Source: Bacillota bacterium
GTDB lineage: Bacteria > Bacillota > Sulfobacillia > JAJZIM01
Direction of reading: 5' to 3'
Assembly: GCA_021810565.1 (NCBI GenBank)
Contig: JAJZIM010000002.1
Span: 18,429-82,428 of the forward strand
DNA: 64,000 nt
Below are positions 7,447-24,192 of the stretch, piece after piece (position 1 is the stretch's first letter; every line of letters begins with the position of its first letter). The notes beneath the pieces are model-generated. The model was given only the letters and a program-made list of their open reading frames with translations, was not told the DNA's origin and made no database searches. Position numbers and translations under genes: made by a program.

Positions 7447-8136
7447 CTAGACCCGGGGGCCCGGCCCCCAGCGGCGGAAGTAGCGGTCCATGTTGAGCCC
7501 GGGCGCCTCCCCCTGCCCGATCCGGCCGCGGGTGCCCATCCCCTGGTGCCAAACCGCTCCGGCGCGACTGACCTCGACCGCGAAGCCCGCCTCCAGCACC
7601 CGATTGTTGTAGTCCCAGTCCTCATAGCCGCCGCAAGCCAGGTAGCCCTCGTCGAAACCCCCCACCCGCCGCACCACCCTGACCGGCATCACCCAGGGAC
7701 AGCCGTTGCCCGGCTCCCGCTCATCCCGATGCTCCCGCATGAAGGCCGAGGCCCGCTCGTCGTTCCACTCTTCCCGCCGCCCCGGCAGGTTCCAGGCCGC
7801 CACCTTCCCTATCTGCGGCTGCCTTTCCAGGACCCCCGCCAATCCCTCCAGCCAGCCCGGGAAAAAGACCATGTCGTTGTGGACCCAGGCCACGTAGGGC
7901 AGCTTCTCCGCCAGCAGCGTGCGCAGTCCCTGGTTCAAGGCCTGGGCCAGGGAGATGCCCTCCGGATTGGCCAACACCTCGATTCCCCGGCGGCCCAGCA
8001 GCTCCACCGTCGCGTCCGCCGAGCCCCCGTCCACCACCAAGAGCCGCGGCTGCCCACCGGCGCGCTCCAGGCTGTCCAAGGCCTCCCGCGTCATCTCCCA
8101 GAAGCCGCAGGTGGTCAGGATGATCCCGATCCGCAT
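7447..8136 (-). CDS. small GT2-family glycosyltransferase, paralog family A (copy 1 of 4)
   Basis: Trimmed to M51: MRIGIILTTCGFWEMTREALDSL...LLVVDGGSADAT...WVHNDMVFFPGWLEGL...YEDWDYNNRVLEAG. The same signature recurs at 21759, 23482 and 27108. Confidence 0.75.
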   Translation of the reverse strand: MRIGIILTTCGFWEMTREALDSLERAGGQPRLLVVDGGSADATVELLGRRGIEVLANPEGISLAQALNQGLRTLLAEKLPYVAWVHNDMVFFPGWLEGLAGVLERQPQIGKVAAWNLPGRREEWNDERASAFMREHRDEREPGNGCPWVMPVRVVRRVGGFDEGYLACGGYEDWDYNNRVLEAGFAVEVSRAGAVWHQGMGTRGRIGQGEAPGLNMDRYFRRWGPGPRV

Positions 8137-8834
8137 GAGGCGTCCTCCTTGCGCCGCACAAACTCCCGGATCGCCTCGGGATGCTCCCGGGTGAAGGGCC
8201 GCACCGGCCGGTCGTCCAGGATGGTGTCCGGGTTCACCCCGGCATAGCGATCCGGATCGCCCTCCAGCCGGGCATACTTCTCCCACCGCCGGAAGATGGC
8301 CCGGGGCGGCTTCACGTAGCCGTAGTGCACGAAAAAGATGCCCGCGTCCCGCACCCGCGGTCCCACCCCCACCGGATGTTCATGCACCGCCCCTTCCCAG
8401 TGCAAGGCGGCCGTGCGTCGGATCAGGACCAGGCGCCGGTACTGCTCATCGTGGTCGGCGGCGTTCTGCACGTGGCCGAAGTCCCGCATCAGATGGAAGA
8501 AATAGCTGTAGTAGGCGTCGGCGTCGGAGGCGACCAGCTGCGGGATCCGCCGGGCGGCGTCGGCATAGAACACCATGTCGGCGTCCATGGGCATGACCCA
8601 CCGACCCACGCTGGCCGCCAGGGCCAGGTTCCGCAGCGCCGCGTAGTTCTCGACCCGGGAGCGCAAGAGGCGCACCTTGGGAAAGGCCCGGGCGACGGCA
8701 TCGGTGCCGTCCGAGGAGTAGCCGTCCACCACCACCACCTCGTCCGCCGCCTCGTGCACCGACCGGAGGGAGTACGGCAGGTACTCCGCCTCGTCTTTCA
8801 CGATGTACAAGACACTCAAAGCCCGCTCGCGCAC
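8115..8834 (-). CDS. GT2-family glycosyltransferase
   Basis: 239 aa: MRERALSVLYIVKDEAEYLPYSLRSVHEAADEVVVVDGYSSDGTDAV. GT-A N-terminal DxD-region architecture. Confidence 0.7.
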   Translation of the reverse strand: MRERALSVLYIVKDEAEYLPYSLRSVHEAADEVVVVDGYSSDGTDAVARAFPKVRLLRSRVENYAALRNLALAASVGRWVMPMDADMVFYADAARRIPQLVASDADAYYSYFFHLMRDFGHVQNAADHDEQYRRLVLIRRTAALHWEGAVHEHPVGVGPRVRDAGIFFVHYGYVKPPRAIFRRWEKYARLEGDPDRYAGVNPDTILDDRPVRPFTREHPEAIREFVRRKEDASCGSGSS

Positions 8835-9865
8835 CTTGGACCTCCTCGTCTCGACAGATCTGCCGGTCCCACCCGCCGTCCCGCAGGGATCCGTACGTCG
8901 GGCGGCACCCGCGTGTTCGGCTCCACCGTGCTTCCCGCCCCCAGGGTCACCCGAGCACCCAGCATCGCCCGGGCGCCCACCCGGGCACCCTCACCCACCA
9001 CGCAGCCGTCGGCCAGCACGCAGCGCTCCAGCACCGCTCCCGCCTCCACCTGCACCCCGTCCCACAGCACGCATCCCTCCAGCCGGGCGCCGCGCTCCAC
9101 GCGGCAGCCCCGACCCAGCACCACCGGCGGCTGCAGTTGCGCCGTCGCCTCCACCCGGCTGTCCGCGCCCAGCAGGAGTCCGGGGCCAGGGGTCAGCATG
9201 TCCCCCTGGACCGCCAGATAATCCCGGACCTCCCCCACGTCCCGCCAGGCGCCCCGCAAGAGACACCCGCGGACGGACCCGGCCTCGCAAAGCCGCGGCA
9301 GGACTTCCCGCCCGAAATCCCGCCGCTGCCCCGGCGGCAGCCAGGACAGGGCCGCCGGCTCCAAAACGTAGATCCCCGCGCTGGCCAGGAAACCGGGGGC
9401 CACCCTGCCCGGCTTCTCCACGAACCGCTCCACCGTGGCGCCGCGGCAGCGGGCATACCCCAGCCGACCCGGATCCCGCCGGCGCAGCAGGGCCAGCGTG
9501 ACCAAGCCGCCCGCCTCCCGGTGGTGCCGCACCAGCCGCCGCAGGTCGAGCCGCAACCAAAGGTCCCCCATCAGCACCAACAGCGGCCGGCGGCTCCCCT
9601 CGACCACGGCCCGCACCGCCCCAGCGGTGCCCAGCTCCCGAGCCTCCCGCCGCACCGTCAGGCGCATCCCCGGGGGGAAGGCCTCCCTGAAGCCGTCCCG
9701 GGCCCCGGCAAGCAGCTCCACCCGGGGGAAGCCCTGCGCGCGCAACTGCTCCAGCAGGTGGGCCAAAAGCGGTCGATCCCCCACCGGCAGCATGGGTTTG
9801 GGCCGGGAGAGGGTCAGCGGCCACAGGCGCCGGCCCCGCCCCCCCGCCAAGATCAGCACGCGCAA
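8816..9865 (-). CDS. NDP-sugar pyrophosphorylase (nucleotidyltransferase domain plus C-terminal left-handed beta-helix; mannose-1-P guanylyltransferase / G1P-thymidylyltransferase-like)
   Basis: TTG start: MRVLILAGGRGRRLWPLTLSRPKPMLPVGDRPLL (the GXGXR NTP-transferase motif). The C-terminus is rich in hexapeptide-like repeats (VGEGARVGARAMLGARVTLGAGSTV). Confidence 0.8.
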   Translation of the reverse strand: MRVLILAGGRGRRLWPLTLSRPKPMLPVGDRPLLAHLLEQLRAQGFPRVELLAGARDGFREAFPPGMRLTVRREARELGTAGAVRAVVEGSRRPLLVLMGDLWLRLDLRRLVRHHREAGGLVTLALLRRRDPGRLGYARCRGATVERFVEKPGRVAPGFLASAGIYVLEPAALSWLPPGQRRDFGREVLPRLCEAGSVRGCLLRGAWRDVGEVRDYLAVQGDMLTPGPGLLLGADSRVEATAQLQPPVVLGRGCRVERGARLEGCVLWDGVQVEAGAVLERCVLADGCVVGEGARVGARAMLGARVTLGAGSTVEPNTRVPPDVRIPAGRRVGPADLSRRGGPRCASGL

Positions 9866-9993
9866 GCGTCAGCCCCCCTTGCCGTCTCCGGCGCTCGCAG
9901 GTTATGTATCATCCTCGGGGAAGGTGCCGTTCGTCGGGCCGCGGCGCAAGGAACCATCCGTTCCGTCCGCGGATATTATGTAACCGGGGTCCG

Positions 9994-11013
9994 TCAGTCC
10001 AAAGCGGCCCGGTACACGGCGCAGGTCTCCCGAGCCGTGCGCTCCCAGCTGAAGTCCCGGGCGCGGGCGCGGCCCCGCTCGGCCAACTCGCTGCGCCACC
10101 GGGGATCCTCCAGCGCCCGGACCATGGCCGCCGCCAACTGGACCGGGTCCGCCGGATCCACCGCCGCGACGGCATCCCCCCCCACCTCCCGCAGCACCTG
10201 GATCCGCGAGGCGATGACCGGCGTGCCCAAGCTCATGGCCTCCAGCACCGGCAGGCCGAACCCCTCCCCCCGGCTGGGATACAGCAGGGCGACGGCCTGG
10301 TCCATCAGGGCCGCCAGGGTCGCGGAAGTCAGATAGCCCGTGAGCACCAGCCGGGGATCACCGGCGAGGCCCGCCGCCTGAACTTGCTGCACCACCCGCC
10401 GCCGCGCGTCCCGCGGGCAGCACATCAATAGCCGGCAGGGCAGGGAGGGCGGCAACCGGCGCCACGCCTCCAGCACCCCGGAGAGGTTCTTGCGGGGAAA
10501 GGCGCCCGCCAGGTGCAGGAAGAAGGAGCCGTAAAGAGCGTACCTTGCGCGGACCTGATCCCGCTGGGCCGGATCGGGAGGCCGCAAGGTCGGCGCCAAG
10601 GGCACCACCGCTATGCGTTCGGCCGCCACCCCCGCTCGCTGCCGCAGCTCGTGAGCCGTGACCTGGGAAGGTGCCAGCACCCGTCGCGCCTGAGCCACGG
10701 CCCGACGCAGCGACTCTTTCAGCAGCCGCCGCACCCGAGGTGGATACTCCTCCGGAAGCTCCTCAAAGAGCAGGTCGTGGACGCTCACCACCAGGGGATG
10801 CGCCAGCCCCACCCGGGGCGAGAAGAAAAGCGGATGGTGCACCAGATCCACCCTCGTCGGCGGCCCGGCCAATTCGGAGCCCTTCCAAAGCACCACCCCG
10901 ACCCCCGTCGCCCGGTCCAAGGCTTCGGCCAAGCGCCGGGGGTATAACTGCAGGCCGGTGGCCTCCCCGCCCAGGGCCGCCAGGTCCAGCGCCACCCGCA
11001 GCGGCCTAGTCAT
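9994..11013 (-). CDS. glycosyltransferase GT4
   Basis: 339 aa: ...SRGEGFGLPVLEAMSLGTPVIASR... (GT4 EX7E region). Its start overlaps the stop of the upstream 654-aa ORF by 8 nt. Confidence 0.8.
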   Translation of the reverse strand: MTRPLRVALDLAALGGEATGLQLYPRRLAEALDRATGVGVVLWKGSELAGPPTRVDLVHHPLFFSPRVGLAHPLVVSVHDLLFEELPEEYPPRVRRLLKESLRRAVAQARRVLAPSQVTAHELRQRAGVAAERIAVVPLAPTLRPPDPAQRDQVRARYALYGSFFLHLAGAFPRKNLSGVLEAWRRLPPSLPCRLLMCCPRDARRRVVQQVQAAGLAGDPRLVLTGYLTSATLAALMDQAVALLYPSRGEGFGLPVLEAMSLGTPVIASRIQVLREVGGDAVAAVDPADPVQLAAAMVRALEDPRWRSELAERGRARARDFSWERTARETCAVYRAALD

Positions 11014-12967
11014 CCGGTCGGATGACCAGGTCCCACAGGCGATATTCCACCGCGAGGAGGCACTCCCAGCCCTCCGCAGCGGGACCGGTCTTTGCGGCCC
11101 GGGTCCGCAGGCAAACCCGCATACCCGGTCTGGCGGTCTCCACGGGCAGCCGAAGGTTGAAGGGCGCCTCGCGCCACCAGTGCAGCGCCTCCCAACGCAG
11201 CCGGCCCTGGACGAGGACGAAGCCGCGCCCAGCCGTGCCCCTGATCTCGCGCACCCTTGCCGTCAAGCCACCCTCCGCCGCCGGCGGCTGCCAACGCACC
11301 GGCACCGACAGCTCCCCCCGCTCCCGCAATCGCGCCGCCGTCCGCAGCCGGGTGGGCGCACCGGTTCCCTTGCTGCGAAGCCTAAGCGGCGTCTCCCGCA
11401 GGAGCAGCGCCTGGGCCTCCACCACCAGCCAGCCGCGTACTCCCCCCGGCACCGCCTCCCAGCGTTCCCCCACCAACCGCACTCGGCCCAGCGCCACCCC
11501 TCCCGGTCCCGGTGCCGGGCCAGGCAGGTGCACCTCCACTCGCCGCCTCGTCTCCCAGCGGCTCGCACGCCCCAGAGGGTCCGCCGCCGCGAGCTCCACC
11601 CGCAACCAGCCGCCTACCAGCACCCCGCCCGCCGTGACCCAGGCCCCGCGGGAGCGCAAAGTGCCCGAGGCGTTCAACCCCGTGGCGGCCGACACGGGTC
11701 GGCGCACGAATATCCGGCGCACCGTGCGCCGCCGGAGTCTGGCGATCAGGCGCGGCAGCAGGCAGCTGACGCCCGACCCCTGGGCTTCCTCGACCAATAG
11801 CGGCAGCAGCCGGGAGCGGCTGACCTCCAGCTGCACGGATACCACCAGCCGCACCGTGCTCCGAGGGACGCCCATGCCTTCGAGTTGCAAGCGGGGCCGG
11901 GCACGCATGCCCCTCTTGGCCTCGGGCACGCCCAGCACGGTTTCCCATCGCCGCGCCACGCTAAGCCGGCGCAAGACACCGTCGCCCTCCGCCAGCAACT
12001 GTCCGCCCACCCTGGCCTCCACCAGCACCCTGCCGGAAAGGACCCGTGCCAGGGCAGGCCCCGCCTCGGGGATGAAGCGCAACGCCCGCCACCCCGGCGG
12101 CAGCTCCAGAGGCAGTTCCAGGAGGGTGCTGGAGCTTTTCCGAGTGACCAACTGCTCCGCCGCCACCAGCGCCCGGGGCAGCCCGGAGCCGCGCCGCGTA
12201 CAGGCCACCTCCCGCCACCCGACGCTAAGCCGGCGCACCCGCACCGTCAGGGGGATCGCCAGCAACATCCACCAGCCGCCGGCGGCCAACCGCGCTTCGG
12301 GTTCCCCCGGCCGCGCTTCCCAGCGCACCTCGTCCCCCGGCACGCATCCCGCCAGGGGCAGGAAAACGTCCCAGGAGGTGCGCCCCTCGAACCGGTGCAT
12401 GGTGCCGTCGAAGGCCGTACAGGCCACCCGCAGCGCCAGAGTGCCCGCAAGGCGTATGCCACCGACCAGCGCCTCGCCCCGCACCGCCTCCGACCGGGCC
12501 CGCACCGTGTTCAGATCCCGGGCCCGGGCTTGCAGCAGCCGGCCCACGCTCACCAAGAGTTCGGTTCCGGTCTGCCCCGCCGGACAGGGCAGCCGGATGG
12601 TGACCCAACGCACCGCATCCCGCGGCTCGGAGGGAACGGACTCCAGCTCCAAGCGGGTGTGCAGGGTGACCCATGCGGGATCCGTATCCTCCAGCACGTA
12701 GGCCACGGCCCCGGAGCGCACCGTCAGCTCCCAGCCCTCCTCCGACAGGAAGGGACAGGGGATGCCGAACCGCATCTCCCCCGCGCAGCGTTCCACCGAA
12801 CCGTCGGTGGCCAGGTAGCGCATGGCCCAGCTCCACACGCCCTCCACCACCCCTGCCGCCTCGCCGTCGTGCCACCACCGCTCCACCCTGCCCAGCACCT
12901 CGCTCACGCCGGCCGCCGGCTTCGCCAACGCCACCCGGCACAGCAGCGGAAAACCGCGCCCCGGCAT
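11006..12967 (-). CDS. hypothetical protein, 654 aa, no family recognised by me
   Basis: ORF 11006..13705 trimmed to M247 (cat at 12965-12967), because the first 246 codons overlap the clearly real GT4 at 12979..13962 in another frame. Composition is protein-like (W/F/Y/C/D/E present, alternating hydrophobics). The opposite-strand ORF 11022..12701 is an S/T/R/P low-complexity artefact. Tightly coupled to both neighbours. Confidence 0.55.
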   Translation of the reverse strand: MPGRGFPLLCRVALAKPAAGVSEVLGRVERWWHDGEAAGVVEGVWSWAMRYLATDGSVERCAGEMRFGIPCPFLSEEGWELTVRSGAVAYVLEDTDPAWVTLHTRLELESVPSEPRDAVRWVTIRLPCPAGQTGTELLVSVGRLLQARARDLNTVRARSEAVRGEALVGGIRLAGTLALRVACTAFDGTMHRFEGRTSWDVFLPLAGCVPGDEVRWEARPGEPEARLAAGGWWMLLAIPLTVRVRRLSVGWREVACTRRGSGLPRALVAAEQLVTRKSSSTLLELPLELPPGWRALRFIPEAGPALARVLSGRVLVEARVGGQLLAEGDGVLRRLSVARRWETVLGVPEAKRGMRARPRLQLEGMGVPRSTVRLVVSVQLEVSRSRLLPLLVEEAQGSGVSCLLPRLIARLRRRTVRRIFVRRPVSAATGLNASGTLRSRGAWVTAGGVLVGGWLRVELAAADPLGRASRWETRRRVEVHLPGPAPGPGGVALGRVRLVGERWEAVPGGVRGWLVVEAQALLLRETPLRLRSKGTGAPTRLRTAARLRERGELSVPVRWQPPAAEGGLTARVREIRGTAGRGFVLVQGRLRWEALHWWREAPFNLRLPVETARPGMRVCLRTRAAKTGPAAEGWECLLAVEYRLWDLVIRPDD

Positions 12968-12978
12968 GCCCGGCTTCC

Positions 12979-13962
12979 TCAGCGCTCCAGGCACGAGCGA
13001 TACACCTCCAGGGTGCGCCGGGCGGTGAGGGACCACGAGAACCGCCGCAGGCGCCGCCCGGCCCGCCCGGTACGCGGCTCCCGCCAGGCCGCCAGCACCG
13101 CTTCCCGGATGGTCTCGGGCCGCCCCGGATCGCAGTAGCGGGCGTGAGGCCCCAGGTAGGCGGCGGCGGTCCCCCGATCGGTGCTCACCACGTTGCACCC
13201 GGCCACCGCCGCCTCCAGGCTGGCCAGGCCGGGCAGCTCGTACCAACTGGCCAGCGCATGCACCCGTGCTCCGACGAAGGCCGCCCCCAGCGCCGTCCCC
13301 CGGGCCGGGCCGCAAAAGCGCACCTGTTCCCCCGCGGCCGCCCGGCACCGCCGGAGGTACCAAGGATCGTTGACCGGCCCCAGGATCACCAGCGGCAGCC
13401 CGAGCGGCCGCAGCGCCTCGATGAGCGCCAGTTGATTTTTCTGGGGGGTGATGCGGCCCACGCACAGCACGTAGGCGCCCTCTCCCGACGCCGAGGCAGG
13501 CCGGCCCTCCTGGTCGCAGGCCAGGGGCACCACCGTGCTGGGTACCCCCTCGGAGCGCAATAGCGCCGCCTCCGCCTCCCCCGTGGTCAGCACGGCCCGG
13601 GCGTGGGACAGCACCTTGCGCCGCCAGGGCAGGTCCCGCCGCCAGCGCAGCACCTCCTCGCCCTCCGCCTGGGGGCAGCGGCACATATATTCCTCCAGGT
13701 CCCAATACATGGGGGTTAGCACGTAGGGGACGCCGTGCTCCGAGGCGTGCTGAGCCATCAGTCCGAGCTCATGGATGCGGGACAGGTTGAACAGGTGCAC
13801 CAAGTCGCAGCCCCTCAGGTCCGGCCGCAGCTCGGTGGACACCTGTGCCGCGACCCCCCGCTCCCGCAAGGCCGCCACGGTGCGGCGCACCAGGAGGGTG
13901 TCCCCGGCCGGCAGCGCCCACAGGTCGGGTCTCCCCTGCAGCAGCACACGCAAGGGCCTCAC
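12979..13962 (-). CDS. glycosyltransferase GT4
   Basis: 327 aa: MRPLRVLLQGRPDLW...ITPQKNQLALIEAL...WYELPGLASLEAAVAGCNVVSTDRG. Confidence 0.8.
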   Translation of the reverse strand: MRPLRVLLQGRPDLWALPAGDTLLVRRTVAALRERGVAAQVSTELRPDLRGCDLVHLFNLSRIHELGLMAQHASEHGVPYVLTPMYWDLEEYMCRCPQAEGEEVLRWRRDLPWRRKVLSHARAVLTTGEAEAALLRSEGVPSTVVPLACDQEGRPASASGEGAYVLCVGRITPQKNQLALIEALRPLGLPLVILGPVNDPWYLRRCRAAAGEQVRFCGPARGTALGAAFVGARVHALASWYELPGLASLEAAVAGCNVVSTDRGTAAAYLGPHARYCDPGRPETIREAVLAAWREPRTGRAGRRLRRFSWSLTARRTLEVYRSCLER

Positions 13963-14029
13963 CTCCCAACGAAAAACAGGTATCTGCGGGTGGATACCTG
14001 TTTCCCCTCCCCAGCGCAGGCGCTACGGC

Positions 14030-15637
14030 TCAAGGATCGCACACGTGGAGCTGTTGGAACTCGGTCACCGTGACGTCGCAATGGATGATGACCTTCTGGG
14101 TCAGCGCACCGGTGTCCGGAACGAACTCCCACAGCAGGTTCTCCACGTGGCAATGCTCGTGCTCCTGCATGCCTTCCTGGACCGGCACCTCCGGGTTCAG
14201 GGGGGTGACCTCCACCATCTCGCTGAAGTCCACATCCTCGAACTCGTGGTGCACCAGGCCGTCGGTCTTGCCCACGAAGTAGATCTGCTTGTGCAGCACG
14301 CCCTGGATGATCACCTTGCCCGCCTTGACGATGGAGACTACGTCCCGCAGGGTGGCGGTGATGTCGACGATCTTCAGGCCGGGAATGGTGATGGTACGCT
14401 CGATGAATTTCTGCTTGTGGCCGCGCCCGATCACCACCGGGGTCTTGATGAAATATCCGTAGGGGGACAGGCACACGGGGATCTCGCGGAACTCATCCAC
14501 CGTTACCTGCACCAGGATGATCACCTTCTGGATCAGCTGACCCGTGGCGGGATCGAACTCCCAGATCAGGTTCTCCACCACGGAGTGGTCCTGCTCGTGC
14601 ATCCCCTCCCGCACCGGCACCGCCGGGTCCAGGGGGGCAACCTCCACCATCTCGCTCCAGGGAACGTCCTCGGCCACGTGATGCACGATGCTGTCCGTGC
14701 CCACGTAGTAGATTTGCTTGTGCAAGGTGCCCTGGACGATGACCTTGCCGGTCTTGACGTGAGAGTGCACCCCGGTAAGCTTCGCCTCGATGTCCACGAT
14801 CTTGACCGCATCGGGGAGCAGGGTCTCGTGGCGCAGGAACTTCTGCTTCTGACCATGCCCGACCACCAGCTTGGCTTCGATGTACGGACCGAAGGGATCC
14901 TCCAGCACGCTGATCTCTTGGGTCTGGGTGACCTTGATGCACAGGTTCAGAATGACCTTCTGGATCAATTGCGCGGTGGCGGGATCATACTCCCAGATCA
15001 GGTTCTCCACGTAGGAGTGGTCCTGCTGGTTCATCCCCGGCTGCACCGGCACGGCGGGATCCACCGGGGGTATCTCCACCAACTCGCTCCACTCGATGTC
15101 CTCGGCCAGGTGGTGCTCCAGGTTGTCTGGTCCGACATAGTAGATCTGCTTGTGCAGGGTGCCCTGCACGATCACCTTGCCTTCCTTCACTATCGAGCGC
15201 ACGTGCACCAAGCTAGGGACGATGTCGACGATCTTCACCGCTTCCAGGCTGATGATCTCCTCGATGAACTTCTGCCTGCAGTTCTCTCCGACGACCACCT
15301 CGGCCTTGATGAGCACCTTCTCCGGCGTCTCCACGCTATCCATGGCTATCCCCCCTTCGCCTCCCGCTCCCGGAACGACCGCTTCCACCACCACGCTGGC
15401 ACCCCGGATCTCCTCCTCCTGCATCGGTTTGGCCGCCTCTTCCTCCCCCGGCTCCGCCTCCTGGCCAGGAGGCATCGCCGCGTCCGGGCCGATGAGCGAC
15501 CCCTGCACCTCGGGCGGCTCCTCGACTAGCAGGTGCTCCCGCGCCGCTGCCGCCTCCGCCGCCATCGCTCCCGCCAACCGGCCGCCCCCCAGGGCGCTCC
15601 GCGCCCGCGACACCCAATCCCTCAGCAACCTGTGCAC
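14030..15637 (-). CDS. tandem-repeat DUF3794/SPOCS-like protein (spore-coat-assembly-type domain), 3 x ~144-aa modules
   Basis: 535 aa. The motif KIVDI...GKVIVQGTLHKQIYYVG..HH.AEDV.WSEMVEV.PLDP.VPV.EGM...DH.VENLIWEFDP.TG.LIQKVI starts at aa 135, 279 and 422. The acidic N-terminal linker and the true start (several in-frame M) are uncertain. The SPOCS assignment is from memory of Pfam PF12673. Confidence 0.7.
   Translation of the reverse strand: MHRLLRDWVSRARSALGGGRLAGAMAAEAAAAREHLLVEEPPEVQGSLIGPDAAMPPGQEAEPGEEEAAKPMQEEEIRGASVVVEAVVPGAGGEGGIAMDSVETPEKVLIKAEVVVGENCRQKFIEEIISLEAVKIVDIVPSLVHVRSIVKEGKVIVQGTLHKQIYYVGPDNLEHHLAEDIEWSELVEIPPVDPAVPVQPGMNQQDHSYVENLIWEYDPATAQLIQKVILNLCIKVTQTQEISVLEDPFGPYIEAKLVVGHGQKQKFLRHETLLPDAVKIVDIEAKLTGVHSHVKTGKVIVQGTLHKQIYYVGTDSIVHHVAEDVPWSEMVEVAPLDPAVPVREGMHEQDHSVVENLIWEFDPATGQLIQKVIILVQVTVDEFREIPVCLSPYGYFIKTPVVIGRGHKQKFIERTITIPGLKIVDITATLRDVVSIVKAGKVIIQGVLHKQIYFVGKTDGLVHHEFEDVDFSEMVEVTPLNPEVPVQEGMQEHEHCHVENLLWEFVPDTGALTQKVIIHCDVTVTEFQQLHVCDP
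14033..15328 (-). repeat. three ~432-nt tandem direct repeats inside the SPOCS-like CDS
   Basis: Nucleotide-level repeats, e.g. ctgcttgtgcag(c/g)(a/g)(c/t)gccctg(g/c)a(t/c)gat(c/g)accttgcc at ~14283, ~14712 and ~15146 (spacing 429/434). Confidence 0.8.
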
Positions 15638-15805
15638 ACCTCCTGGCCCACACCGCTTCTCGCCCGCCCGCCACGGTTGCCGATACCACGATATGCCGGG
15701 CCACCGCTTATGTTACAGCGGCTGATTTTTCTCTTTCGGGAAACGACTGATCCCGTCATGCGACGGTTGCAGCCGGCCTCTCCCGCAGGCCGGACGCGGA
15801 GTGGG

Positions 15806-16861
15806 TCAGGGGGAGAGCACCACCTCCGTGACCACCTGCAAAGGCATCAGCCGCTCGGTGCCGTCTTCCACCACGTCCACCCACACCGTGCGACGCTCCA
15901 CCCGGACGATCCCCGGCCCCGTGACGTCGGTGGCCACCTCCACCGTCCGGCCGTCCTGACGGATGGCCACCCGGGACACCCGGATCCCCGGCCCGCGCAC
16001 GTCCTGCACCACCTGCACCACCTCGTCGAAAATGATGGCCACCACCTCGATCAGCAGCACCGCCTTCAGACGCAGCAGGCCCCGCACCGGCAGGAGTTCC
16101 GGGATCAAGAACTCCACCTTCACCGCCACCTCCACCGAGGCACCCGGCTGCAAAGCCGGCAGCGGCAGCGCGTGGGTGAAGGCGACATCCTCGACGGCCA
16201 GTCGCACCACGCCTTCTGTCGTCACGTAGTAGAGCTGCTGGTGCAGCACGCCGCTCACCACCACCGACCCGTTGATCTGGCGGTAGGTCACGTCTTGCAC
16301 CTCGGCCGTGACCCCCTTGATCTTGACGGCCACCAGCGGCAGCTCCCGCACCAGGAGGACCTGCGCCCGGGTCTCGAAGACCGCTCCCACCAGGATAGGC
16401 CGCTTCAACACGCAGATGAACTCCCGGATGTGCTCCACCAGCACCTGCCGGCTGGCCTCCCCCACCACGGTCCCGTCCGCGGCGAAGACCCGCGCCTGCA
16501 CCACCAGCACGATCTGCTGCAAGAGCCGCGCATGGTCCGTGCTGAGGCGCCAGATCAGGTATTCCACCTCGGCCCTGGCCACCACTCCCATGCCGGGGGC
16601 CGTCCCGGGCACCTCCAACGCGCAGCTGAAGGGCACCTCCTCCGCCTCGTGGCGGACGATGTTGTCGACCCCCACATAGAAGACCTGCTTTTGCACCATC
16701 CCCTGAATGATGACTTGGTTGGTGACCGGCTGCGCGGCGAGGTTTTGGACCTGAGCGGTCACCTCCTTGATCTTGCGGACCGGACAGGTGCCGGCCTGAG
16801 CGCGCTCCCCCGCCAGTTGCCCCGCCGTGCCGTTCAATCCCCCCTCCTCCCTTCCCTCCAT
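15806..16861 (-). CDS. DUF3794/SPOCS-like protein (2 modules), paralogous to 14030..15637
   Basis: 351 aa containing VIIQGMVQKQVFYVGVDNIVRHEAEEVPFS and VVVSGVLHQQLYYVTTEGVVRLAVEDVAF, the same module signature as the neighbouring gene. Confidence 0.65.
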   Translation of the reverse strand: MEGREEGGLNGTAGQLAGERAQAGTCPVRKIKEVTAQVQNLAAQPVTNQVIIQGMVQKQVFYVGVDNIVRHEAEEVPFSCALEVPGTAPGMGVVARAEVEYLIWRLSTDHARLLQQIVLVVQARVFAADGTVVGEASRQVLVEHIREFICVLKRPILVGAVFETRAQVLLVRELPLVAVKIKGVTAEVQDVTYRQINGSVVVSGVLHQQLYYVTTEGVVRLAVEDVAFTHALPLPALQPGASVEVAVKVEFLIPELLPVRGLLRLKAVLLIEVVAIIFDEVVQVVQDVRGPGIRVSRVAIRQDGRTVEVATDVTGPGIVRVERRTVWVDVVEDGTERLMPLQVVTEVVLSP

Positions 16862-16943
16862 GGTTATGTAAAAAGCGTCCCGATTGCCCCCGACAAAAAA
16901 AGGGCCGCCCCGGGGGGGGGGCGACCCTTTGGATCCGGTCTGG

Positions 16944-18642: not shown

Positions 18643-19014
18643 TCAGTCCGTTGTCGATCCGTCCCGCGGCGCGATGTCCGGCCGGTGCGGATCGTATTCC
18701 CTGGACAGGAGCACCGCCAGGACGCTGGCCTGCAGCGCCCACACCCGGTGCTCCTCCCCCGGGCGAACGATGAAATACCAGCCGGCCGCGATCTCCTCCC
18801 GGGCCAGCCGGCCGGTACGCCCGTCCCGCACCTCCAGGCGCACCCGACCGGACACCACGTAGAAAAGTTCCTCGGTGCGGGCATGGAGATGCCCGCCGCG
18901 GCAGGCGCCCGCCCTCAGGCGCAGGACGTTCAGCTGCCGCCAGCGGCCCTGGGCCACCTGCACCAGTTCCCCGCGCTCGTCCGCCCGCCGCTGCTGCGGC
19001 CGCCGCCTTCTCAT
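18643..19014 (-). CDS. small cupin-domain protein (possibly sugar ketoisomerase/epimerase-like given context)
   Basis: ORF trimmed to M28 (ATGA overlap with upstream epimerase stop). Cupin motif 1 is GGHLHARTEELFYVVSG (G-x-H-x-H-x3-E-x6-G). Confidence 0.6.
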   Translation of the reverse strand: MRRRRPQQRRADERGELVQVAQGRWRQLNVLRLRAGACRGGHLHARTEELFYVVSGRVRLEVRDGRTGRLAREEIAAGWYFIVRPGEEHRVWALQASVLAVLLSREYDPHRPDIAPRDGSTTD

Positions 19015-19973
19015 CGCAACTGCGCCGCCGGTCGGGTCCGCCAATGCTCCAGCACGTCGGCCAGGCTGCGCTCCCAGGGGATGGCCGGCACCCATCCCGT
19101 GGCTTCCCGCAGTTTCCCGGCGTCACCCCGGATGTCGGGCAGGTCCACCGCCCGCACCCGCCGCGCCTCCTGCTCCACCCGCACCGGAACCCGCGCCAGA
19201 CGGCGCAGGGACTCCAGCACCTCGGCCACCGATCGGCTGTGTCCCGTGGCCAAGTTGTATACCTCGCCCACCCGGCCACCGGTGGCCGCCAGGAGGTAGC
19301 CGCGCACCACGTCCCGCACGTCGCCGAGGTCGCGCCGCGGCGCGAGATTCCCCACCCGCAGCACCGGCGGGCCCAGGCCCCGCTCCGCCGCCGCCACCTG
19401 CCGGGCCAGGTCGGGTACCAGGTGGCGGCGGTCCTGGCCGGGGCCGGTGTAGCTGAAGCTGCGCACCACCACCACCCCCAAGCCCCAACGGCGGGCGTAG
19501 CTAAGCCCCAGCAGGCTCTGGCACAGCTTGCTGATCCCGTAGGGGGTGCACGGCCGCAGCCGGCTGTCCTCGGTGAGCGGCAGCTCCGCCCGGGGCGCGG
19601 GGCCATACTCCTCGCAGGACCCTATCAGGAGGACCCGGGCCTCGGGTGCCTGGCGCCGCACCGCTTCCAGCAGCCGGGCGGCACCGGTCGCGTTGGTCCG
19701 GAGGGTGGCCAGGGGGTCTTCCCAAGAGGCCGGCACCGAGGTCCTCCCCGCCAGATGGAAAACCACCCGCGGCGTCGCCTCGGCCACGATCTCCTCCCAT
19801 CCCTTGGCCGTGAGATCCGCCCGCCGCATTCTAACGCGGTCCCGAAAGGGAGTCACCCGGTCCAGGCTGCCGGCCGAGCGGGCCGTGCCCCACACCTCCC
19901 ATCCCTCACCCAGCAGCAACCGGGCCAGATGGCTGCCGGCGAATCCGTTGATGCCGGTGATCAGCGCCCGCAT
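19011..19973 (-). CDS. NAD-dependent epimerase/dehydratase family protein (GDP-4-keto-6-deoxy-D-mannose reductase Rmd-like), copy E1
   Basis: ORF 19011..20732 trimmed to M254 (cat at 19971-19973): MRALITGINGFAGSHLARLLLGEGWEVWG...YGISKL (Rossmann GxxGxxG plus catalytic YxxxK). Paralog of 25243..26214. Confidence 0.8.
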   Translation of the reverse strand: MRALITGINGFAGSHLARLLLGEGWEVWGTARSAGSLDRVTPFRDRVRMRRADLTAKGWEEIVAEATPRVVFHLAGRTSVPASWEDPLATLRTNATGAARLLEAVRRQAPEARVLLIGSCEEYGPAPRAELPLTEDSRLRPCTPYGISKLCQSLLGLSYARRWGLGVVVVRSFSYTGPGQDRRHLVPDLARQVAAAERGLGPPVLRVGNLAPRRDLGDVRDVVRGYLLAATGGRVGEVYNLATGHSRSVAEVLESLRRLARVPVRVEQEARRVRAVDLPDIRGDAGKLREATGWVPAIPWERSLADVLEHWRTRPAAQLR

Positions 19974-20692
19974 CCGCGCGTCCCCCGATTGCACTCGAAC
20001 AACTCGCCCTTGCGATCGTCCCAGCGCTCCCGCAGCAGCCGGTCGTGGTCCGCCATCAGCCGCTCCACGTTCTCCACGTAGCGGGCGCTGGTGGCGTGCG
20101 CATGGTGGCACACCGCCGCTTGATGCACCTCCAGCCGTAAGCCTTGGGCCTTGAGGCGCAGGCAGAAATCTGCCTCCTCGTTCCAGAAAGGACCAAAGGC
20201 CCAATCGTAGCCGCCGATCTCGGCGACCAGGTTGCGGAAGAGGAAGCAGTAGCCCACCAGCACGTCCACCCGCAGGCCCTCCCGCCGATCGGGAGACAGC
20301 TGCCAACTCTGCACGGCGTGCGCCCAGGCATTGTCGAAGCACACGCCCTCCACCCCCGTGCCCCCCACCCCGGGCTCGGCCAGGGGGGCCAGGAGCGCTT
20401 CCAGCCAGCCTTCCCCCACCTCGGTGTCGTTGTCCAAGGTGCAGATGAACTCCCCCCGGGCCTGGGCGAACCCGAAGTTGCGGGCGCACACCCCATAGTT
20501 GCGCTCCCGCGCCACCGCGTGCACCCGCGGGTCCCGCCTGGCCAGGCTTTGGAAATAGGCGGCGGTGCCGTCGGTGGAGCCGTTGTCCACCAGGATCAAC
20601 TCGTAGGCGGGTCGGGTGTGGGCGAGCACGCTCGCCACGCAGCGCCGACTGACCTCCCGGTTGTTGTGGGCCAAGACCACGATGGATACCAC
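19961..20692 (-). CDS. GT2-family glycosyltransferase (type B, copy 1)
   Basis: MVSIVVLAHNNREVSRRCVASVL...LILVDNGSTDGT...LDNDTEVGEGWLEALL. Paralog of 26290..27114. Confidence 0.8.
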   Translation of the reverse strand: MVSIVVLAHNNREVSRRCVASVLAHTRPAYELILVDNGSTDGTAAYFQSLARRDPRVHAVARERNYGVCARNFGFAQARGEFICTLDNDTEVGEGWLEALLAPLAEPGVGGTGVEGVCFDNAWAHAVQSWQLSPDRREGLRVDVLVGYCFLFRNLVAEIGGYDWAFGPFWNEEADFCLRLKAQGLRLEVHQAAVCHHAHATSARYVENVERLMADHDRLLRERWDDRKGELFECNRGTRGCGR

Positions 20693-20695
20693 CGT

Positions 20696-21742
20696 TCACG
20701 CCCCTCCCGCCGCGGCGATGCGGGCCAGCCAACGCCGCGCTGTCCGATGATAGGAGAAACCGCGGGCCCGGCGCCGCGCCTGCCGCGACAGCCGCGCCAG
20801 CCGTGGCGGGTCTGCCAGGAGGTCGGCGACCGCTCCAGCCATCCGCAAGGTGAAGTCACCCTCCCCCGGCCATCCGGGAAGCAGGATGCCGGTGGCCCCG
20901 TCGGCCACCGTGGTGGTGAGCGCCCCCAGGCGAGTGGCCACCGTGGGCGCCCCGGCCGCCTGGCACTCCAAGGCAGCCAGACAGAACAGCTCCGGCACGG
21001 TGCATGGATACAGGTGCATGGCGGCGGTCATCTGCTCCCGCACCAACCGGGAGCGGGAGACCTTGCCCAGATACTCCACTCCCGGCAGTCCGGCCAGCCG
21101 CCGCCGGTGCTCCTCGTCCCCCGGAGGGCGGCCCCACAGGGAGAAATCGCTGGTGACCACCAGGTGCGCCGCGGCGCAGCGCCGCTGGATCTCCTCCAGG
21201 ATCGGCCCCAGGTGCTCGGCCCCCCGGCCCGGCACCGAGCAGTAGAGCAGCTTCGCCGGATCCCGCCGCGGCCCGGCGCGGTAATCGGAGAGGTTCACCC
21301 CCAGGGGGATCTCCCACAAGAGCGCCGGGGACAACCCCGAGCGGCGCGCCAACTGGGCCGTGTGGTAGGGGCTCAGGGTGACCACCGCCCGCAGGTGGGG
21401 CAGCAGGTGCTCCCAGTCCCCCACCAACACGGCATCTTCCTCACAGGACCAAAACAGCTTGACCCGCGAGCGCACCCCGGGCAGGCACTCCACCGGGCCC
21501 CGCATCCCCACGAAGGCATCCCACCCCTCCCCCTTTCCGAGGCTGCCCCGGGGCCGGTAGCACACCCCCCGATGCACCTCGGGCCGGCCCACGCCGCAAA
21601 ACACCGTCACCGCCGCGTGCCGGGCCAGGTGCCGCACCAGCAAGATCAGGGCCGTCTCCGTGCCGCCCAATCCCCGGCCCTCCAGATCGGCGCCACGCCA
21701 GCCCCAATCCCCGGGGGCGTCATAGTAGAAGGCGATGCGCAC
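20696..21742 (-). CDS. glycosyltransferase GT4 (type G, copy 1)
   Basis: MRIAFYYDAPGDWGWRGADLEGRGLGGTETALILLVRHLA...ELFCLAALECQAAGAPTVATRLGALTTTVADGATGILL. Paralog of 24197..25246. Confidence 0.8.
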   Translation of the reverse strand: MRIAFYYDAPGDWGWRGADLEGRGLGGTETALILLVRHLARHAAVTVFCGVGRPEVHRGVCYRPRGSLGKGEGWDAFVGMRGPVECLPGVRSRVKLFWSCEEDAVLVGDWEHLLPHLRAVVTLSPYHTAQLARRSGLSPALLWEIPLGVNLSDYRAGPRRDPAKLLYCSVPGRGAEHLGPILEEIQRRCAAAHLVVTSDFSLWGRPPGDEEHRRRLAGLPGVEYLGKVSRSRLVREQMTAAMHLYPCTVPELFCLAALECQAAGAPTVATRLGALTTTVADGATGILLPGWPGEGDFTLRMAGAVADLLADPPRLARLSRQARRRARGFSYHRTARRWLARIAAAGGA

Positions 21743-21758
21743 CCCCGCACCCTCCTTT

Positions 21759-22457
21759 TCAGTACAGATTGGTTACCCGTGGCGCGTCCGACCCCCACCG
21801 CGCCACGTAGCGGCGGCGGTTGGCCGCCTCGCCGTCCAGACGCACCGCATAGCGGGTGGCGGCGGCACGGTGCCACACCACGCTGCCCTTGGTCACCAGC
21901 ACGGCGTAGCCGGCCGCCAGGAGGCGGTTGTTGTAGTCCCAATCCTCGTACTCGGCGTGGTTGACATAGCCCTCGTCGTGGGGACCCACCGCCTCGGCCG
22001 CCGCCCGGGGGATCACCCACGGGTTGCCGTTGCCGGCTTCCAGAAAAGCGCCCTGGGTCCGGACGAATTCCGCCACCTCCGCCTCGGTGTATTCCCGGTC
22101 CAACAGGTTCCAGGAGGACACCTTGCCCGCCCCGGGCCGGCGCTCCAGGACCGCCAGCAATCCCGACAGCCAACCCGGGTAGAAGACCATGTCGTTGTGG
22201 ATCCAACAAAGGCAATCCACGACCGGATCGGTCAGCAGATGGGAGCGCGCCCGGTTCTGAACCCAGGGCAGCGATCGGGGAGCACGGCCCGTCAGCACCT
22301 CCACCCCCTCTCGGCGCAAAAACTCCGGCGTCCCGTCCCGGGATCCGTTGTCCACCGCGATCAGGCGGTGCGGCGCGTCCACGGTACGTCGAAAGCTCTC
22401 CAGGCAGCGCCGGGTGAGCGGCAGGAAGTCGAAACAGGTGAGGAAGACGCCCACCAT
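21759..22457 (-). CDS. small GT2-family glycosyltransferase, paralog family A (copy 2)
   Basis: MVGVFLTCFDFLPLTRRCLESF...LIAVDNGSRDGT...WIHNDMVFYPGWLSGL...YEDWDYNNRLLAAG. Confidence 0.75.
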   Translation of the reverse strand: MVGVFLTCFDFLPLTRRCLESFRRTVDAPHRLIAVDNGSRDGTPEFLRREGVEVLTGRAPRSLPWVQNRARSHLLTDPVVDCLCWIHNDMVFYPGWLSGLLAVLERRPGAGKVSSWNLLDREYTEAEVAEFVRTQGAFLEAGNGNPWVIPRAAAEAVGPHDEGYVNHAEYEDWDYNNRLLAAGYAVLVTKGSVVWHRAAATRYAVRLDGEAANRRRYVARWGSDAPRVTNLY

Positions 22458-22460
22458 GGC

Positions 22461-23468: not shown

Positions 23469-23481
23469 GGGGGTCCCTCCT

Positions 23482-24192
23482 TCAAAAGGGTGCGGGCAGG
23501 CGCAGGTGCAGGCTGCCCCATTTCCCGATGTAGCGCGCCTTGTTGCTCTCGTCCCAATCCGGCCGGTGGGTGTGACGTCGGGTGCCGGCCTGCTCGTGCC
23601 GCACCGCGCTGGCCTTGGTGATCATCACCGGGTATCCGGCCAGGAGCAGGCGGTTGTTGTAGTCGTGGTCCTCGTAGATGCAGTCGCCCACGTAGCCCTC
23701 GTCGTGCAGGCCCACCTCCTCCACCACCGCTCGGGGCATGATCCAGGGCACCGCGTTTCCCAGCTTGAGGTAGCCGCCGGACAGGCGCATGAAGCGTCCC
23801 ACCTCCTCCTCGGTGAAGTCTCTGGACTCGGTCAACTCCCACGGGGAAAGCTTGCCGATCCACGGCGCGCGCTGAAACACCTGCCCCAGGTTCGCGAGCC
23901 ACCCCGGGAAGAAGCGCATGTCGTTGTGGATCCAGGCCAGGTGGGTCACCCCCGGATCCGCCAGGAGCCGGCATAACCCCAGGTTGATGGCCGCCGCCTG
24001 GCTGCACGGCGCCGCCACGGCGATCACCTCGTAGCCCCGGGAAAGCAGGTATTCCCGGGTGCCGTCCTCGGACGCGTTGTCCACCACCACCAGGCGGTGG
24101 GGCGTGTGGTCGGACCCGTAGTGGAAGCTGTCCAGGGCCGATCGGGTCTTCTCCAGGAAATTGTAGGTGGTGAGCACCACTCCCGCCAACAT
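23482..24192 (-). CDS. small GT2-family glycosyltransferase, paralog family A (copy 3)
   Basis: MLAGVVLTTYNFLEKTRSALDSF...LVVVDNASEDGT...WIHNDMRFFPGWLANL...YEDHDYNNRLLLAG. Confidence 0.75.
   Translation of the reverse strand: MLAGVVLTTYNFLEKTRSALDSFHYGSDHTPHRLVVVDNASEDGTREYLLSRGYEVIAVAAPCSQAAAINLGLCRLLADPGVTHLAWIHNDMRFFPGWLANLGQVFQRAPWIGKLSPWELTESRDFTEEEVGRFMRLSGGYLKLGNAVPWIMPRAVVEEVGLHDEGYVGDCIYEDHDYNNRLLLAGYPVMITKASAVRHEQAGTRRHTHRPDWDESNKARYIGKWGSLHLRLPAPF

Follow-up and report, generated by a model that had tools for sequence, protein, structure and literature searches.

The gene at 11006..12967 on the minus strand of the window (the whole 64,000-nt stretch analysed here, from a high-GC Thermaerobacter sp.) is a genuine coding sequence, and profile comparisons identify its product as a highly diverged SPOCS protein with five tandem repeats. 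SPOCS stands for SpoVID-CotE-SipL, the domain formerly called DUF3794 (Pfam PF12673). By gene position, the protein is an ortholog of five-repeat (5xSPOCS) proteins that form a small, unnamed family, and its gene sits in a conserved GT4-5xSPOCS-GT4 arrangement, a previously undescribed sugar-adding cassette. We favor, at a probability of about 0.6, a role as a spore-envelope scaffold that would be made by the mother cell and would either be glycosylated by the co-encoded GT4 enzymes or dock them. The original prediction, an orphan protein tightly coupled between two GT4 genes and recalling polysaccharide lyases in size, was accurate in its observations (ORF, placement, coupling); its interpretation is only partly supported, the lyase analogy being rejected.

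The gene and its boundaries

The stop-to-stop ORF that contains the gene spans 11006..13705 on the minus strand. Upstream of about 12967 its GC3 is only 0.52-0.62, and the stretch there is the coding frame of the GT4 gene at 12979..13962, whereas downstream of 12967 GC3 is 0.82-0.94, with a GC2 of about 0.5-0.6 throughout. The N-terminal extension is therefore an artefact, as had been proposed, and the features of the gene itself are the following:

11006..12967, minus strand: target coding sequence, 653 aa, five tandem SPOCS (DUF3794-type) repeats (GC3 frame, family HMM, hhalign, dN/dS)
12974..12980, minus strand: Shine-Dalgarno sequence GAGGAAG, overlapping the TGA stop (12979-12981) of the upstream GT4 gene (read directly from the sequence)

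The length of 654 aa first given fits the ORF but counts the stop codon; the protein has 653 aa, with neither a signal peptide nor a TM segment predicted. ATG 12967 follows the GAGGAAG at 12980-12974 after a 6-nt spacer. The NCBI annotation (product hypothetical) instead starts at GTG 12994, giving 662 aa behind the Shine-Dalgarno sequence GGAGGTG. We prefer, short of proof, ATG 12967, because the N-termini of homologs (M-x4-F) line up with it. At its 3' end the gene closes with ATGACTAG, and its TAG stop (11006-11008) lies inside the downstream GT4 gene (start ATG 11013). Close coupling with the two flanking GT4 genes is thus confirmed, with the predicted 8-nt overlap downstream and, upstream, a gap of 11 nt rather than 12.

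The ORF is more than chance, since its frame is correct and at least four independent Thermaerobacter assemblies (among them L009, L010 and L011) carry all 653 codons intact, with a dN/dS of 0.36 against L011, the most distant strain (Sd 55.5, Nd 51.5). A non-coding artefact is rejected, given the GC3 phase, the intact ORFs and the dN/dS. Of all genes in the locus the target shows the highest dN/dS and evolves fastest, under purifying selection.

SPOCS homology and the five-repeat architecture

Routine searches return no family for the target: none in Pfam (the PF12673 model included) or NCBIfam (CsxC_fam included) at E<=1, and none in PADLOC or PHROGs at E<=0.01, which disposes of an anti-phage defence or phage protein. 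The Pfam result agrees with the earlier failure to recognise a GT or lyase motif. Word-indexed homolog searches, with the target or with a target plus P0002 profile, gave only the self match, and a metagenome-contig scan with the target gave no additional relatives. A phmmer scan of 1.84 billion (1.84e9) representative proteins returned one relative, P0002 (E 3e-8), a clear PF12673 (SipL/SPOCS, DUF3794) protein (PF12673 x4, E 7e-42) that BLASTP aligns to the target at E 2e-14 across two SPOCS repeats. The label 'orphan' is thus apt for the routine tools and fails for phmmer and family profiles, which do find SPOCS relatives.

The assignment is carried by a family HMM built from ten PF12673-type proteins (P0002-P0011, from metagenome assemblies whose MAGs are labelled 'Clostridiales bacterium' and 'Thermaerobacter'), with the target left out. 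It scores the target at 76.4 bits, collinearly over residues 6-401; the best of 1000 shuffles reaches 2.5 bits and non-SPOCS proteins of the window at most 2.1 bits. Profile-profile comparison, a check proposed at the outset, links the target to the family end to end (hhalign probability 97.4%, E 1e-11, 627 collinear columns). Since the PF12673 model itself fails on the target, the sole one of 11 aligned family members that it does not match (it passes in 10/11), the assignment is transitive, and overall identity to P0002-P0011 is only 17-24%. SPOCS1, encoded upstream of the cassette, outscores the target on the family HMM; it was rejected as the true P0002-family ortholog because it has its own 56-64% orthologs upstream of the cassette in three related loci (L002, L005, L007).

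A single-domain SPOCS HMM places five in-register repeats in the target (sum 71.8 bits versus 8.4 for shuffles):

12689..12934, minus strand: SPOCS repeat 1, aa 12-93; 6.1 bits, weak alone; in register and collinear with family repeat 1
12278..12541, minus strand: SPOCS repeat 2, aa 143-230; 32.0 bits, i-E 5e-9
11867..12115, minus strand: SPOCS repeat 3, aa 285-367; 18.4 bits, i-E 9e-5; VPxAxxGM loop retained
11444..11692, minus strand: SPOCS repeat 4, aa 426-508; 7.5 bits, weak, in register; PGxxPG loop retained
11084..11272, minus strand: SPOCS repeat 5, aa 566-628; 11.7 bits; ARPGM loop retained

Repeats 1 and 4 are individually not significant by this HMM. SPOCS is a beta domain some 85 aa long, which in models of SipL, CotE and CsxA folds as a small beta-barrel with two three-stranded sheets; its hallmark sequence features (the V.VEG strand, a 'PF' position that is aromatic, the PGxxPGM loop) are found in repeats 2, 3 and 5 of the target and partly in 1 and 4. 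Five repeats, spaced about 140-150 aa from one to the next, are likewise present in every full-length relative (those of P0002 start at 12, 170, 316, 462 and 618), and the family proteins are about 650-780 aa long. Self-BLAST of the target detects no internal repeats, which become visible only via the family profile. 'RWE' was discarded as a positional repeat motif, its occurrences falling at differing positions within the repeats.

Given the family alignment, AF2 predicts an all-beta protein (pLDDT 74, only about 55-70 in the C-terminal third) with a single 4-residue helix and otherwise strands; a single-sequence AlphaFold model (pLDDT 35) was unusable. A fold search with the AF2 model matched no solved structure and gave no enzyme-like or significant lyase match. 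A glycosyltransferase of GT-A or GT-B type was rejected, there being no GT family match and no alpha/beta Rossmann domains in the all-beta model.

In composition the target departs from its family. The richness in W, F, Y and C originally described is true of Trp (3.8%, 25 residues) and not of Phe (1.5%), Tyr (0.5%) or Cys (1.5%, 10 residues). At equal locus GC, its net charge is +34, whereas the ten relatives all lie between -4 and -38; Trp compares with 0-1.3% in the same proteins, and Arg, at 14.4%, with 2.4-10.2%. The acidic, Trp-poor composition common to the ten 5xSPOCS relatives is absent from the target, whose basic, Trp-rich character hints that its role may have shifted.

The conserved cassette and its surroundings

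The genes and elements around the target are these:

12979..13962, minus strand: upstream GT4 glycosyltransferase, 327 aa, first cassette enzyme (Pfam; orthologs 44-50% identical)
9994..11013, minus strand: downstream GT4 glycosyltransferase, 339 aa (Pfam), overlapping the target stop by 8 nt
8816..9865, minus strand: sugar-1-phosphate nucleotidyltransferase with LbH domain, a recurrent cassette member in related loci
13971..14006, minus strand: terminator-like hairpin, 14-bp stem and U-run (dG -29.3 kcal/mol, z -2.5)
14030..15637, minus strand: SPOCS1, 535 aa, 3 SPOCS domains (PF12673), acidic (net -39); 56-64% orthologs at the same position in L002, L005 and L007
15806..16861, minus strand: SPOCS2, 351 aa, 2 SPOCS domains (PF12673); ortholog at the same position in L007

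Pfam assigns both flanking genes to GT4, in agreement with the original prediction, and their co-occurrence with the target gene, which that prediction had proposed to check, recurs in related loci. The cassette is found in all related loci with readable flanks. Its order is GT4, 5xSPOCS (always second), GT4 or GT2, then a sugar-nucleotidyltransferase and more GTs; GT4-5xSPOCS-GT4 is kept in five loci (L001, L002, L004, L005, L007), while L003 departs from it by an inserted GT2 and the loci L006 and L008 are partial. The GT4s on the flanks are mutual best matches. In L001-L005 and L007 the gene immediately preceding the 5xSPOCS gene encodes an ortholog of the upstream enzyme, and in related loci orthologs of the downstream enzyme (30-44% identical) are encoded downstream of the 5xSPOCS gene; wherever flanks are visible, the junctions between the 5xSPOCS and GT4 genes overlap or nearly abut. 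The SPOCS2-SPOCS1 pair upstream of the cassette is also conserved in L007. Association with further SPOCS proteins is not general, as SPOCS1/2 genes are missing upstream of the cassette in L003 and L004. SPOCS1 resembles the CsxC family weakly (NF045794, E 1e-8, below cutoff).

The hairpin lies between SPOCS1 and the first GT4 gene, with about 12 nt separating its end from the ribosome-binding site of that GT4. GTs and dTDP-sugar enzymes abound in the locus, which adjoins mreBCD-minCDE-rodA cell-envelope genes. A clear TM segment is predicted for 0 of its 15 GT genes (one is borderline); no flippase, polymerase or priming transferase is encoded between 5213 and 27836, and no exporter or oligosaccharyltransferase in the locus. 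A strict search for sigma-K and sigma-E promoter consensus in the locus gave no matches and no clear promoter. An ACATAA motif enriched in its intergenic gaps was set aside as evidence, being inconsistently conserved at equivalent sites in related loci.

Possible roles at the spore surface

SPOCS proteins are lattice-forming or morphogenetic proteins of the spore envelope (10.64898/2026.09.03.749163), and the Thermaerobacter lineage is treated as spore-forming (PMC6878958). SipL of Clostridioides difficile, with three predicted tandem DUF3794 domains in a pseudo-threefold tripod (10.64898/2026.09.03.749163), shares with the target tandem SPOCS/DUF3794 beta-domains on one polypeptide without a signal peptide, in endospore-forming Bacillota. 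The target differs in having five repeats, in lacking the C-terminal LysM by which SipL binds SpoIVA (no LysM by Pfam), in escaping the Pfam model, in its strongly basic character and in its place within a GT operon. CsxA and CsxC, of the exosporium basal layer and parasporal crystal of Clostridium sporogenes, are likewise SPOCS-fold spore-envelope proteins and self-assemble into ordered lattices (10.64898/2026.09.03.749163); they are single-SPOCS, Cys-rich (24 and 14 Cys) and trimerising, whereas the target has five domains per chain, 10 Cys and no CsxC_fam (NF045794) match. CotE and SpoVID of Bacillus subtilis, founding members of the superfamily, act from the mother-cell side to organise the outer layers of the spore (10.64898/2026.09.03.749163); their sequences show no detectable similarity to that of the target, and they combine single SPOCS domains with other C-terminal modules, outside GT operons. 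P0002-P0011 are collinear with the target end to end and have the same five repeats, M-x4-F N-terminus and place between orthologous GT4 genes. They differ in that all ten are acidic and above the Pfam threshold, the target basic, Trp-rich and below it.

Based on these comparisons we can outline how the favored scaffold might work. The target would be made in the mother-cell cytoplasm during sporulation, a site proposed because it has no signal peptide, and would form, by self-assembly through the beta-rich SPOCS repeats, an outer layer of the spore envelope, in which SPOCS1 and SPOCS2, encoded just upstream, could co-assemble. Translationally coupled to the target, the soluble GT4s would then use it as acceptor or docking platform and start a spore-surface glycan there; since assembly of the spore surface takes place within the mother cell, neither a lipid carrier nor an exporter would be necessary. 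Sporulation-specific expression, spore-envelope location, self-assembly and a direct functional link to the GT4s are what we infer here; no sigma-E/sigma-K promoter was found, and the terminator-like hairpin splits SPOCS1 from the GT4-target operon, both of which count against the proposal. Functional analogies exist in cgeAB of B. subtilis, where the crust glycoprotein CgeA is encoded beside its glycosyltransferase CgeB (PMC13577073), and in BclA3/SgtA of C. difficile, where the gene of a spore-surface protein adjoins that of its own GT (PMC7157674). In each, a soluble GT glycosylates a spore-surface protein in the mother cell. The folds are unrelated, CgeA being a small hexamer-former and BclA3 collagen-like, and glycosylation of a SPOCS protein is our proposal.

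The alternative that fares best, although we consider it improbable, keeps the same SPOCS homology and a structural or morphogenetic role in the spore envelope but takes the GT neighborhood as mere co-regulation within a late mother-cell regulon, the target being neither acceptor nor platform. SipL, CotE, SpoVID and CsxA/C are indeed described as scaffolds or organisers, and the literature searched is silent on their glycosylation. However, the same two orthologous GT4 genes enclose the gene in every locus with visible flanks, although the proteins are only 22-40% identical, and translational coupling that persists in this way usually signals a stoichiometric or physical partnership.

Rather doubtful is a neofunctionalised SPOCS protein in which charge inversion and Trp/Arg enrichment would have produced a lectin-like binder, one that holds an acidic glycan or SPOCS1 non-covalently at the spore surface. 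Trp and Arg are typical carbohydrate-binding residues, both are enriched over the ten relatives at equal GC, and the inverted charge, the net -39 of the adjacent SPOCS1 and the top dN/dS in the locus would all fit. Nevertheless, Pfam finds no carbohydrate-binding module signature, the Trp residues occupy non-equivalent positions in the repeats, and several replace a conserved Phe, so that much of this could be due to compositional drift under relaxed constraint.

We give still less credence to a role unrelated to sporulation, as a vegetative S-layer-like envelope glycoprotein or a cytoplasmic scaffold of a cell-wall polysaccharide pathway. The adjoining mreBCD-minCDE-rodA genes, the abundant GTs and dTDP-sugar enzymes and the lack of an identified sporulation promoter would suit it; the target, however, has no signal peptide or TM segment, the locus encodes no exporter, flippase or oligosaccharyltransferase, and the SPOCS domain is reported in the literature examined only from spore-envelope proteins of Bacillota. 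A glycan-acting enzyme (a heparinase II/III-type lyase or hydrolase) or a non-coding artefact is hardly credible: only the size (about 650 aa) and the place in a glycan locus speak for it, and the size analogy drawn originally fails on the absence of a Pfam or NCBIfam lyase match, the all-beta model and the absence of a lyase fold match.

Returning to the scaffold proposal, a bolder version, which we hold only tentatively and think unlikely, is that the cassette is an unrecognised spore-surface glycosylation module with the tandem-SPOCS scaffold as the protein primer or acceptor from which two dedicated cytoplasmic GT4s would initiate a glycan layer, the scaffold being remodelled here, in the course of rapid evolution, by charge inversion and Trp/Arg gain, possibly into a layer that binds a glycan or SPOCS1. 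By analogy, it may resemble GtfA/GtfB acting on serine-rich adhesins or CgeB on CgeA. If true, it would be the first direct tie of the SPOCS assembly fold to spore glycobiology.

SPOCS proteins (SpoVID, CotE, SipL, CsxA/C) are emerging as common building blocks of spore coats and exosporia, in studies so far confined to low-GC Bacilli and Clostridia and never tied to glycosylation. To these our analysis adds a five-repeat SPOCS architecture, a conserved operon joining it to two GT4 enzymes in a deep-branching, high-GC Thermaerobacter-like lineage, and a case of extreme scaffold divergence (charge inversion, loss of Pfam detectability) with architecture and genome position kept. The protein is a candidate for anchoring spore-surface glycan in organisms without Bacillus crust proteins and BclA-type proteins, and a 'hypothetical protein' of several public MAGs is now open to annotation. 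The Thermaerobacter taxon and the adjacent PF12673 genes are consistent with the occurrence of SPOCS in endospore-forming Bacillota.

Reading frame and translational coupling

Because the G+C content of the window is ~70%, long spurious ORFs are common, and with 70 ORFs of at least 80 aa overlapping the region from 5 to 20 kb, ORF length by itself is no proof of coding. The codon-position GC profile from 11000 to ~12960 (GC3 ~0.87, second-position minimum ~0.58) fits the minus-strand frame ending at 11006; above ~12970, GC3 in that frame falls to 0.52-0.62 and the frame of the upstream GT4 gene carries the signal instead. This switch marks the 246-codon N-terminal extension of the ORF as an artefact, as the original prediction had proposed, and leaves a product of 653 aa from ATG 12967:

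12979-13962 (-): upstream GT4 gene
6-nt spacing to ATG 12967 (-): Shine-Dalgarno-like GAGGAAG, overlapping the TGA of the upstream GT4
11006-12967 (-): gene for the 653-aa protein
9994-11013 (-): downstream GT4 gene

At its 3' end, ATGACTAG, the gene overlaps the downstream GT4 by 8 nt. Together with the position of GAGGAAG, this overlap bears out the proposed tight coupling to both neighbours, each of which Pfam also identifies as GT4. In the public annotation (MDA8065604.1) the start is placed nine codons further upstream, at GTG 12994 (662 aa, Shine-Dalgarno GGAGGTG), giving a 16-nt overlap with the upstream GT4. Other members of the same protein cluster are annotated at 653 aa, and homolog N-termini (M-x4-F) align with ATG 12967; from these alignments we favour ATG 12967 as the probable start. 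The gene is real, which confirms the initial observation.

A divergent protein with five SPOCS repeats

The protein had been described as an orphan, which is true for routine tools: Pfam and NCBIfam gave no match even at E ≤ 1, PADLOC and PHROGs gave none, and a word-indexed search of 5.8 billion proteins recovered only the protein itself, annotated as ‘hypothetical protein’ in a Thermaerobacter sp. MAG. It does not hold once 1.84 billion cluster representatives are scanned exhaustively with HMMER: this brought up a single other protein, P0002 (724 aa; E 3e-8). P0002 is an unambiguous SipL/SPOCS protein (SpoVID-CotE-SipL domain, PF12673, formerly DUF3794; E 7e-42 over four stretches), and its pairwise alignment with the 653-aa protein (E 2e-14) spans two of its SPOCS repeats. 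With P0002 as query, nine further relatives were found (P0003-P0011; 592-784 aa), all containing PF12673. The family is rare: in GTDB, only three species-representative genomes hold a detectable member, and a metagenome scan with the 653-aa protein as query yielded no further relatives.

A full-length HMM built from the ten relatives, with the 653-aa protein excluded, matched it at 76.4 bits, collinear over residues 6-401 (best of 1000 composition-matched shuffles, 2.5 bits; non-SPOCS window proteins, at most 2.1 bits). A single-domain SPOCS profile (88 columns, 53 domains), in which the protein was likewise never included, located five repeats:

SPOCS repeats of the 653-aa protein, single-domain profile scores
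Repeat 1: residues 12-93, 6.1 bits
Repeat 2: residues 143-230, 32.0 bits
Repeat 3: residues 285-367, 18.4 bits
Repeat 4: residues 426-508, 7.5 bits
Repeat 5: residues 566-628, 11.7 bits

The scores sum to 71.8 bits (best shuffle, 8.4); repeats 1 and 4 are insignificant individually and are supported by register and collinearity. Every full-length relative likewise has five repeats at a matching period of ~140 aa, and when the protein's own cluster was compared with the family by hhalign, 627 columns aligned collinearly between the N-terminus and the last repeat (probability 97.4%, E 1e-11). The V.VEG strand, the ‘PF’-position aromatic (here often Trp) and the PGxxPGM loop are recognisable in the repeats. 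An AlphaFold model from the single sequence was useless; one from a 13-sequence family alignment was usable and all-beta (mean pLDDT 74; ~85-90 over residues 1-400, 55-70 past residue 400), with 35 strands, including strands of 20-25 residues between the SPOCS cores. Judged by these comparisons, the domain assignment as a very divergent five-repeat SPOCS protein is firm; superfamily membership is transitive, since the Pfam model itself misses the protein. This assignment replaces the earlier analogy, drawn from size, to polysaccharide lyases.

A conserved cassette around a fast-evolving gene

Among related loci with readable flanks, all show the co-occurrence with flanking GT4s. The core order GT4 - 5xSPOCS - GT4 is present in L001, L002, L004, L005 and L007, with junctions that overlap or nearly abut; the first GT4 best matches the window's upstream GT4 (44-50% identity) and the second its downstream GT4 (35-42%). 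Where the contig is long enough, a nucleotidyltransferase of ~350 aa and more GTs come after the second GT4. In L003, a GT2 is inserted into an otherwise identical order, and the partial loci L006 and L008 agree with the cassette. L008 (DYIG01000054.1) is labelled ‘Thermaerobacter marianensis’, a doubtful label given its G+C content of 58%, versus 72-74% in the window and other Thermaerobacter-like loci.

Two further SPOCS genes lie directly upstream of the cassette in the window:

14030-15637 (-): SPOCS1, three PF12673 domains, upstream of the first GT4
15806-16861 (-): SPOCS2, two PF12673 domains

SPOCS1 (net charge -39, weak CsxC-family similarity, G+C 0.63, below its neighbours) is highly conserved, with dN/dS of 0.08-0.10 between strains and orthologs at 56-64% identity in distant loci, namely upstream of the cassette in L002 and L005 and, at 63% and beside a SPOCS2 ortholog (41%), in L007. 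As SPOCS1 has close orthologs of its own, the positional ortholog of the 5xSPOCS proteins must be the 653-aa protein, which has diverged much further than its neighbours (22-27% identity). No paper tying SPOCS/DUF3794 proteins to glycosyltransferase operons was found in the limited literature searched, and the cassette appears to be undescribed so far; the five-repeat architecture, its embedding in a GT4 cassette and an inversion of charge are new.

Seven variants make up the protein's 90%-identity cluster, spread over at least 16 contigs (NCBI, JGI, ENA, Logan), and the ORF is exactly 653 codons everywhere. Three independent assemblies (L009, L010, L011) have the gene order of the window.

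Nei-Gojobori estimates for the 653-aa protein and its neighbours
Window versus L009/L010: dS ~0.03, dN/dS 0.79-0.84; other genes, dN/dS 0.08-0.50
Window versus L011: dS 0.106, dN/dS 0.36 (Sd 55.5, Nd 51.5); upstream GT4 0.18, downstream GT4 0.19

Its dN/dS is the highest of the locus in both comparisons; these values and the constant ORF show that the gene is kept by purifying selection, yet is the fastest-evolving of the cluster. Its net charge is +34, versus -4 to -38 in relatives, and Arg reaches 14.4% (2.4-10.2% in relatives). An excess of W, F, Y and C had been reported, which is right for Trp (3.8%, versus 0-1.3% in relatives) and wrong for the other three, none of which is raised. Several relatives' loci have the same G+C (0.72-0.74) as the window locus, so this composition cannot be put down to GC pressure alone.

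A possible role at the spore surface

The three SPOCS genes lie in a 23-kb minus-strand run (5213-27836) with 15 GT2/GT4 genes, one sugar nucleotidyltransferase, two dehydratase/epimerase genes and an FdtA-like cupin. None of the 15 GTs has a clear transmembrane segment by hydropathy (one GT2 is borderline), and the run contains no flippase, polymerase or priming transferase. One part of it stands out:

18643-27836 (-): alternating GT2/GT4 run with a dTDP-glucose-4,6-dehydratase-like gene, an epimerase and the FdtA-like cupin

Here, unusually for a polysaccharide locus, no gene encodes a membrane protein, flippase or polymerase, as would fit cytoplasmic (mother-cell) assembly. A GT2 gene elsewhere in the run (7447-8136, -) is the most variable gene among near-identical strains (91% aa identity; dS 0.136, versus 0.01-0.09 for its neighbours, window versus L009/L010), which hints at local recombination or replacement.

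In the literature read, SPOCS domains are known only from Bacillota spore-envelope proteins, in which they serve as scaffolds that self-assemble or as organisers of morphogenesis; for SipL, the prediction is a pseudo-threefold tripod of three tandem DUF3794 domains, and CsxA and CsxC build crystalline exosporium and parasporal layers (10.64898/2026.09.03.749163; PMC11513918). Thermaerobacter is regarded as spore-forming (PMC6878958). Assembly of the spore surface takes place within the mother cell, and there soluble GTs glycosylate surface proteins whose genes adjoin their own, as for CgeA/CgeB (PMC13577073) and BclA3/SgtA (PMC7157674). We infer, with a probability of roughly 0.6, that the 653-aa protein would be synthesised in the mother cell as an outer spore-envelope scaffold and would serve both co-translated GT4s as acceptor or docking platform. 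This reasonable hypothesis would account for three features: no signal peptide on the protein, no export machinery encoded in the locus, and a translational coupling that has persisted. The most likely alternative is that the protein is co-regulated with the GTs and has no direct link to them; next comes a neofunctionalised, basic and Trp-rich protein that binds SPOCS1, itself acidic, or an acidic glycan, and third a vegetative envelope role. That it is an enzyme or an artefact is effectively excluded.

Several candidate transcription signals accompany these genes:

13971-14006 (-): terminator-like hairpin, 14-bp stem and U-run, dG -29.3 kcal/mol, z -2.5
16899-16930 (-): strong terminator after an amino-acid permease gene, C10 homopolymer tract, GGGTCGCCCCCCCCCCGGGGCGGCCC and T-run
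9902-9907, 9976-9981, 15708-15713, 16864-16869, 26237-26242 (all -): ACATAA sites

The hairpin, which is absent from the automatic terminator scan, separates the stop codon of SPOCS1 from the first GT4 and ends ~12 nt before the GT4 ribosome-binding site; transcription of the 653-aa protein's gene thus needs read-through or a promoter within the SPOCS1 3' end. The hairpin suggests attenuated read-through, by which the structural protein would be made at high and the enzymes at low levels. Strict sporulation-promoter consensus patterns recognised no promoter. Of the seven ACATAA copies in the window (2.5 expected), five fall in the intergenic DNA of the glycan/SPOCS locus, which totals 746 nt; these five precede genes and read along the coding strand. 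The hexamer recalls the ‘CATA’ element of sigma-E/K promoters and could serve as a -10-like promoter element; its conservation at equivalent sites of related loci is inconsistent. One site directly follows the terminator at 16899-16930 and stands only a few nt from the start codon called for SPOCS2, so this start may be miscalled or the transcript may be leaderless.

The remaining window is typical Firmicute core (valS-folC, maf-radC-mreBCD-minCDE-rodA, dnaK-grpE-dnaJ-clpB), with two other genes of interest:

50348-51853 (+): Polysacc_synt/MATE/MurJ-type flippase, 501 aa, opposite strand, ~23 kb from the glycan locus
34858-36615 (-): 585-aa ORF with a Cas12f1-like/TnpB TNB domain (PF07282), GC3 0.80, below its neighbours

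The former could be a SpoVB-like or Wzx-like transporter, and the latter, situated between maf and clpB, is probably an inserted TnpB element of IS200/IS605 type.
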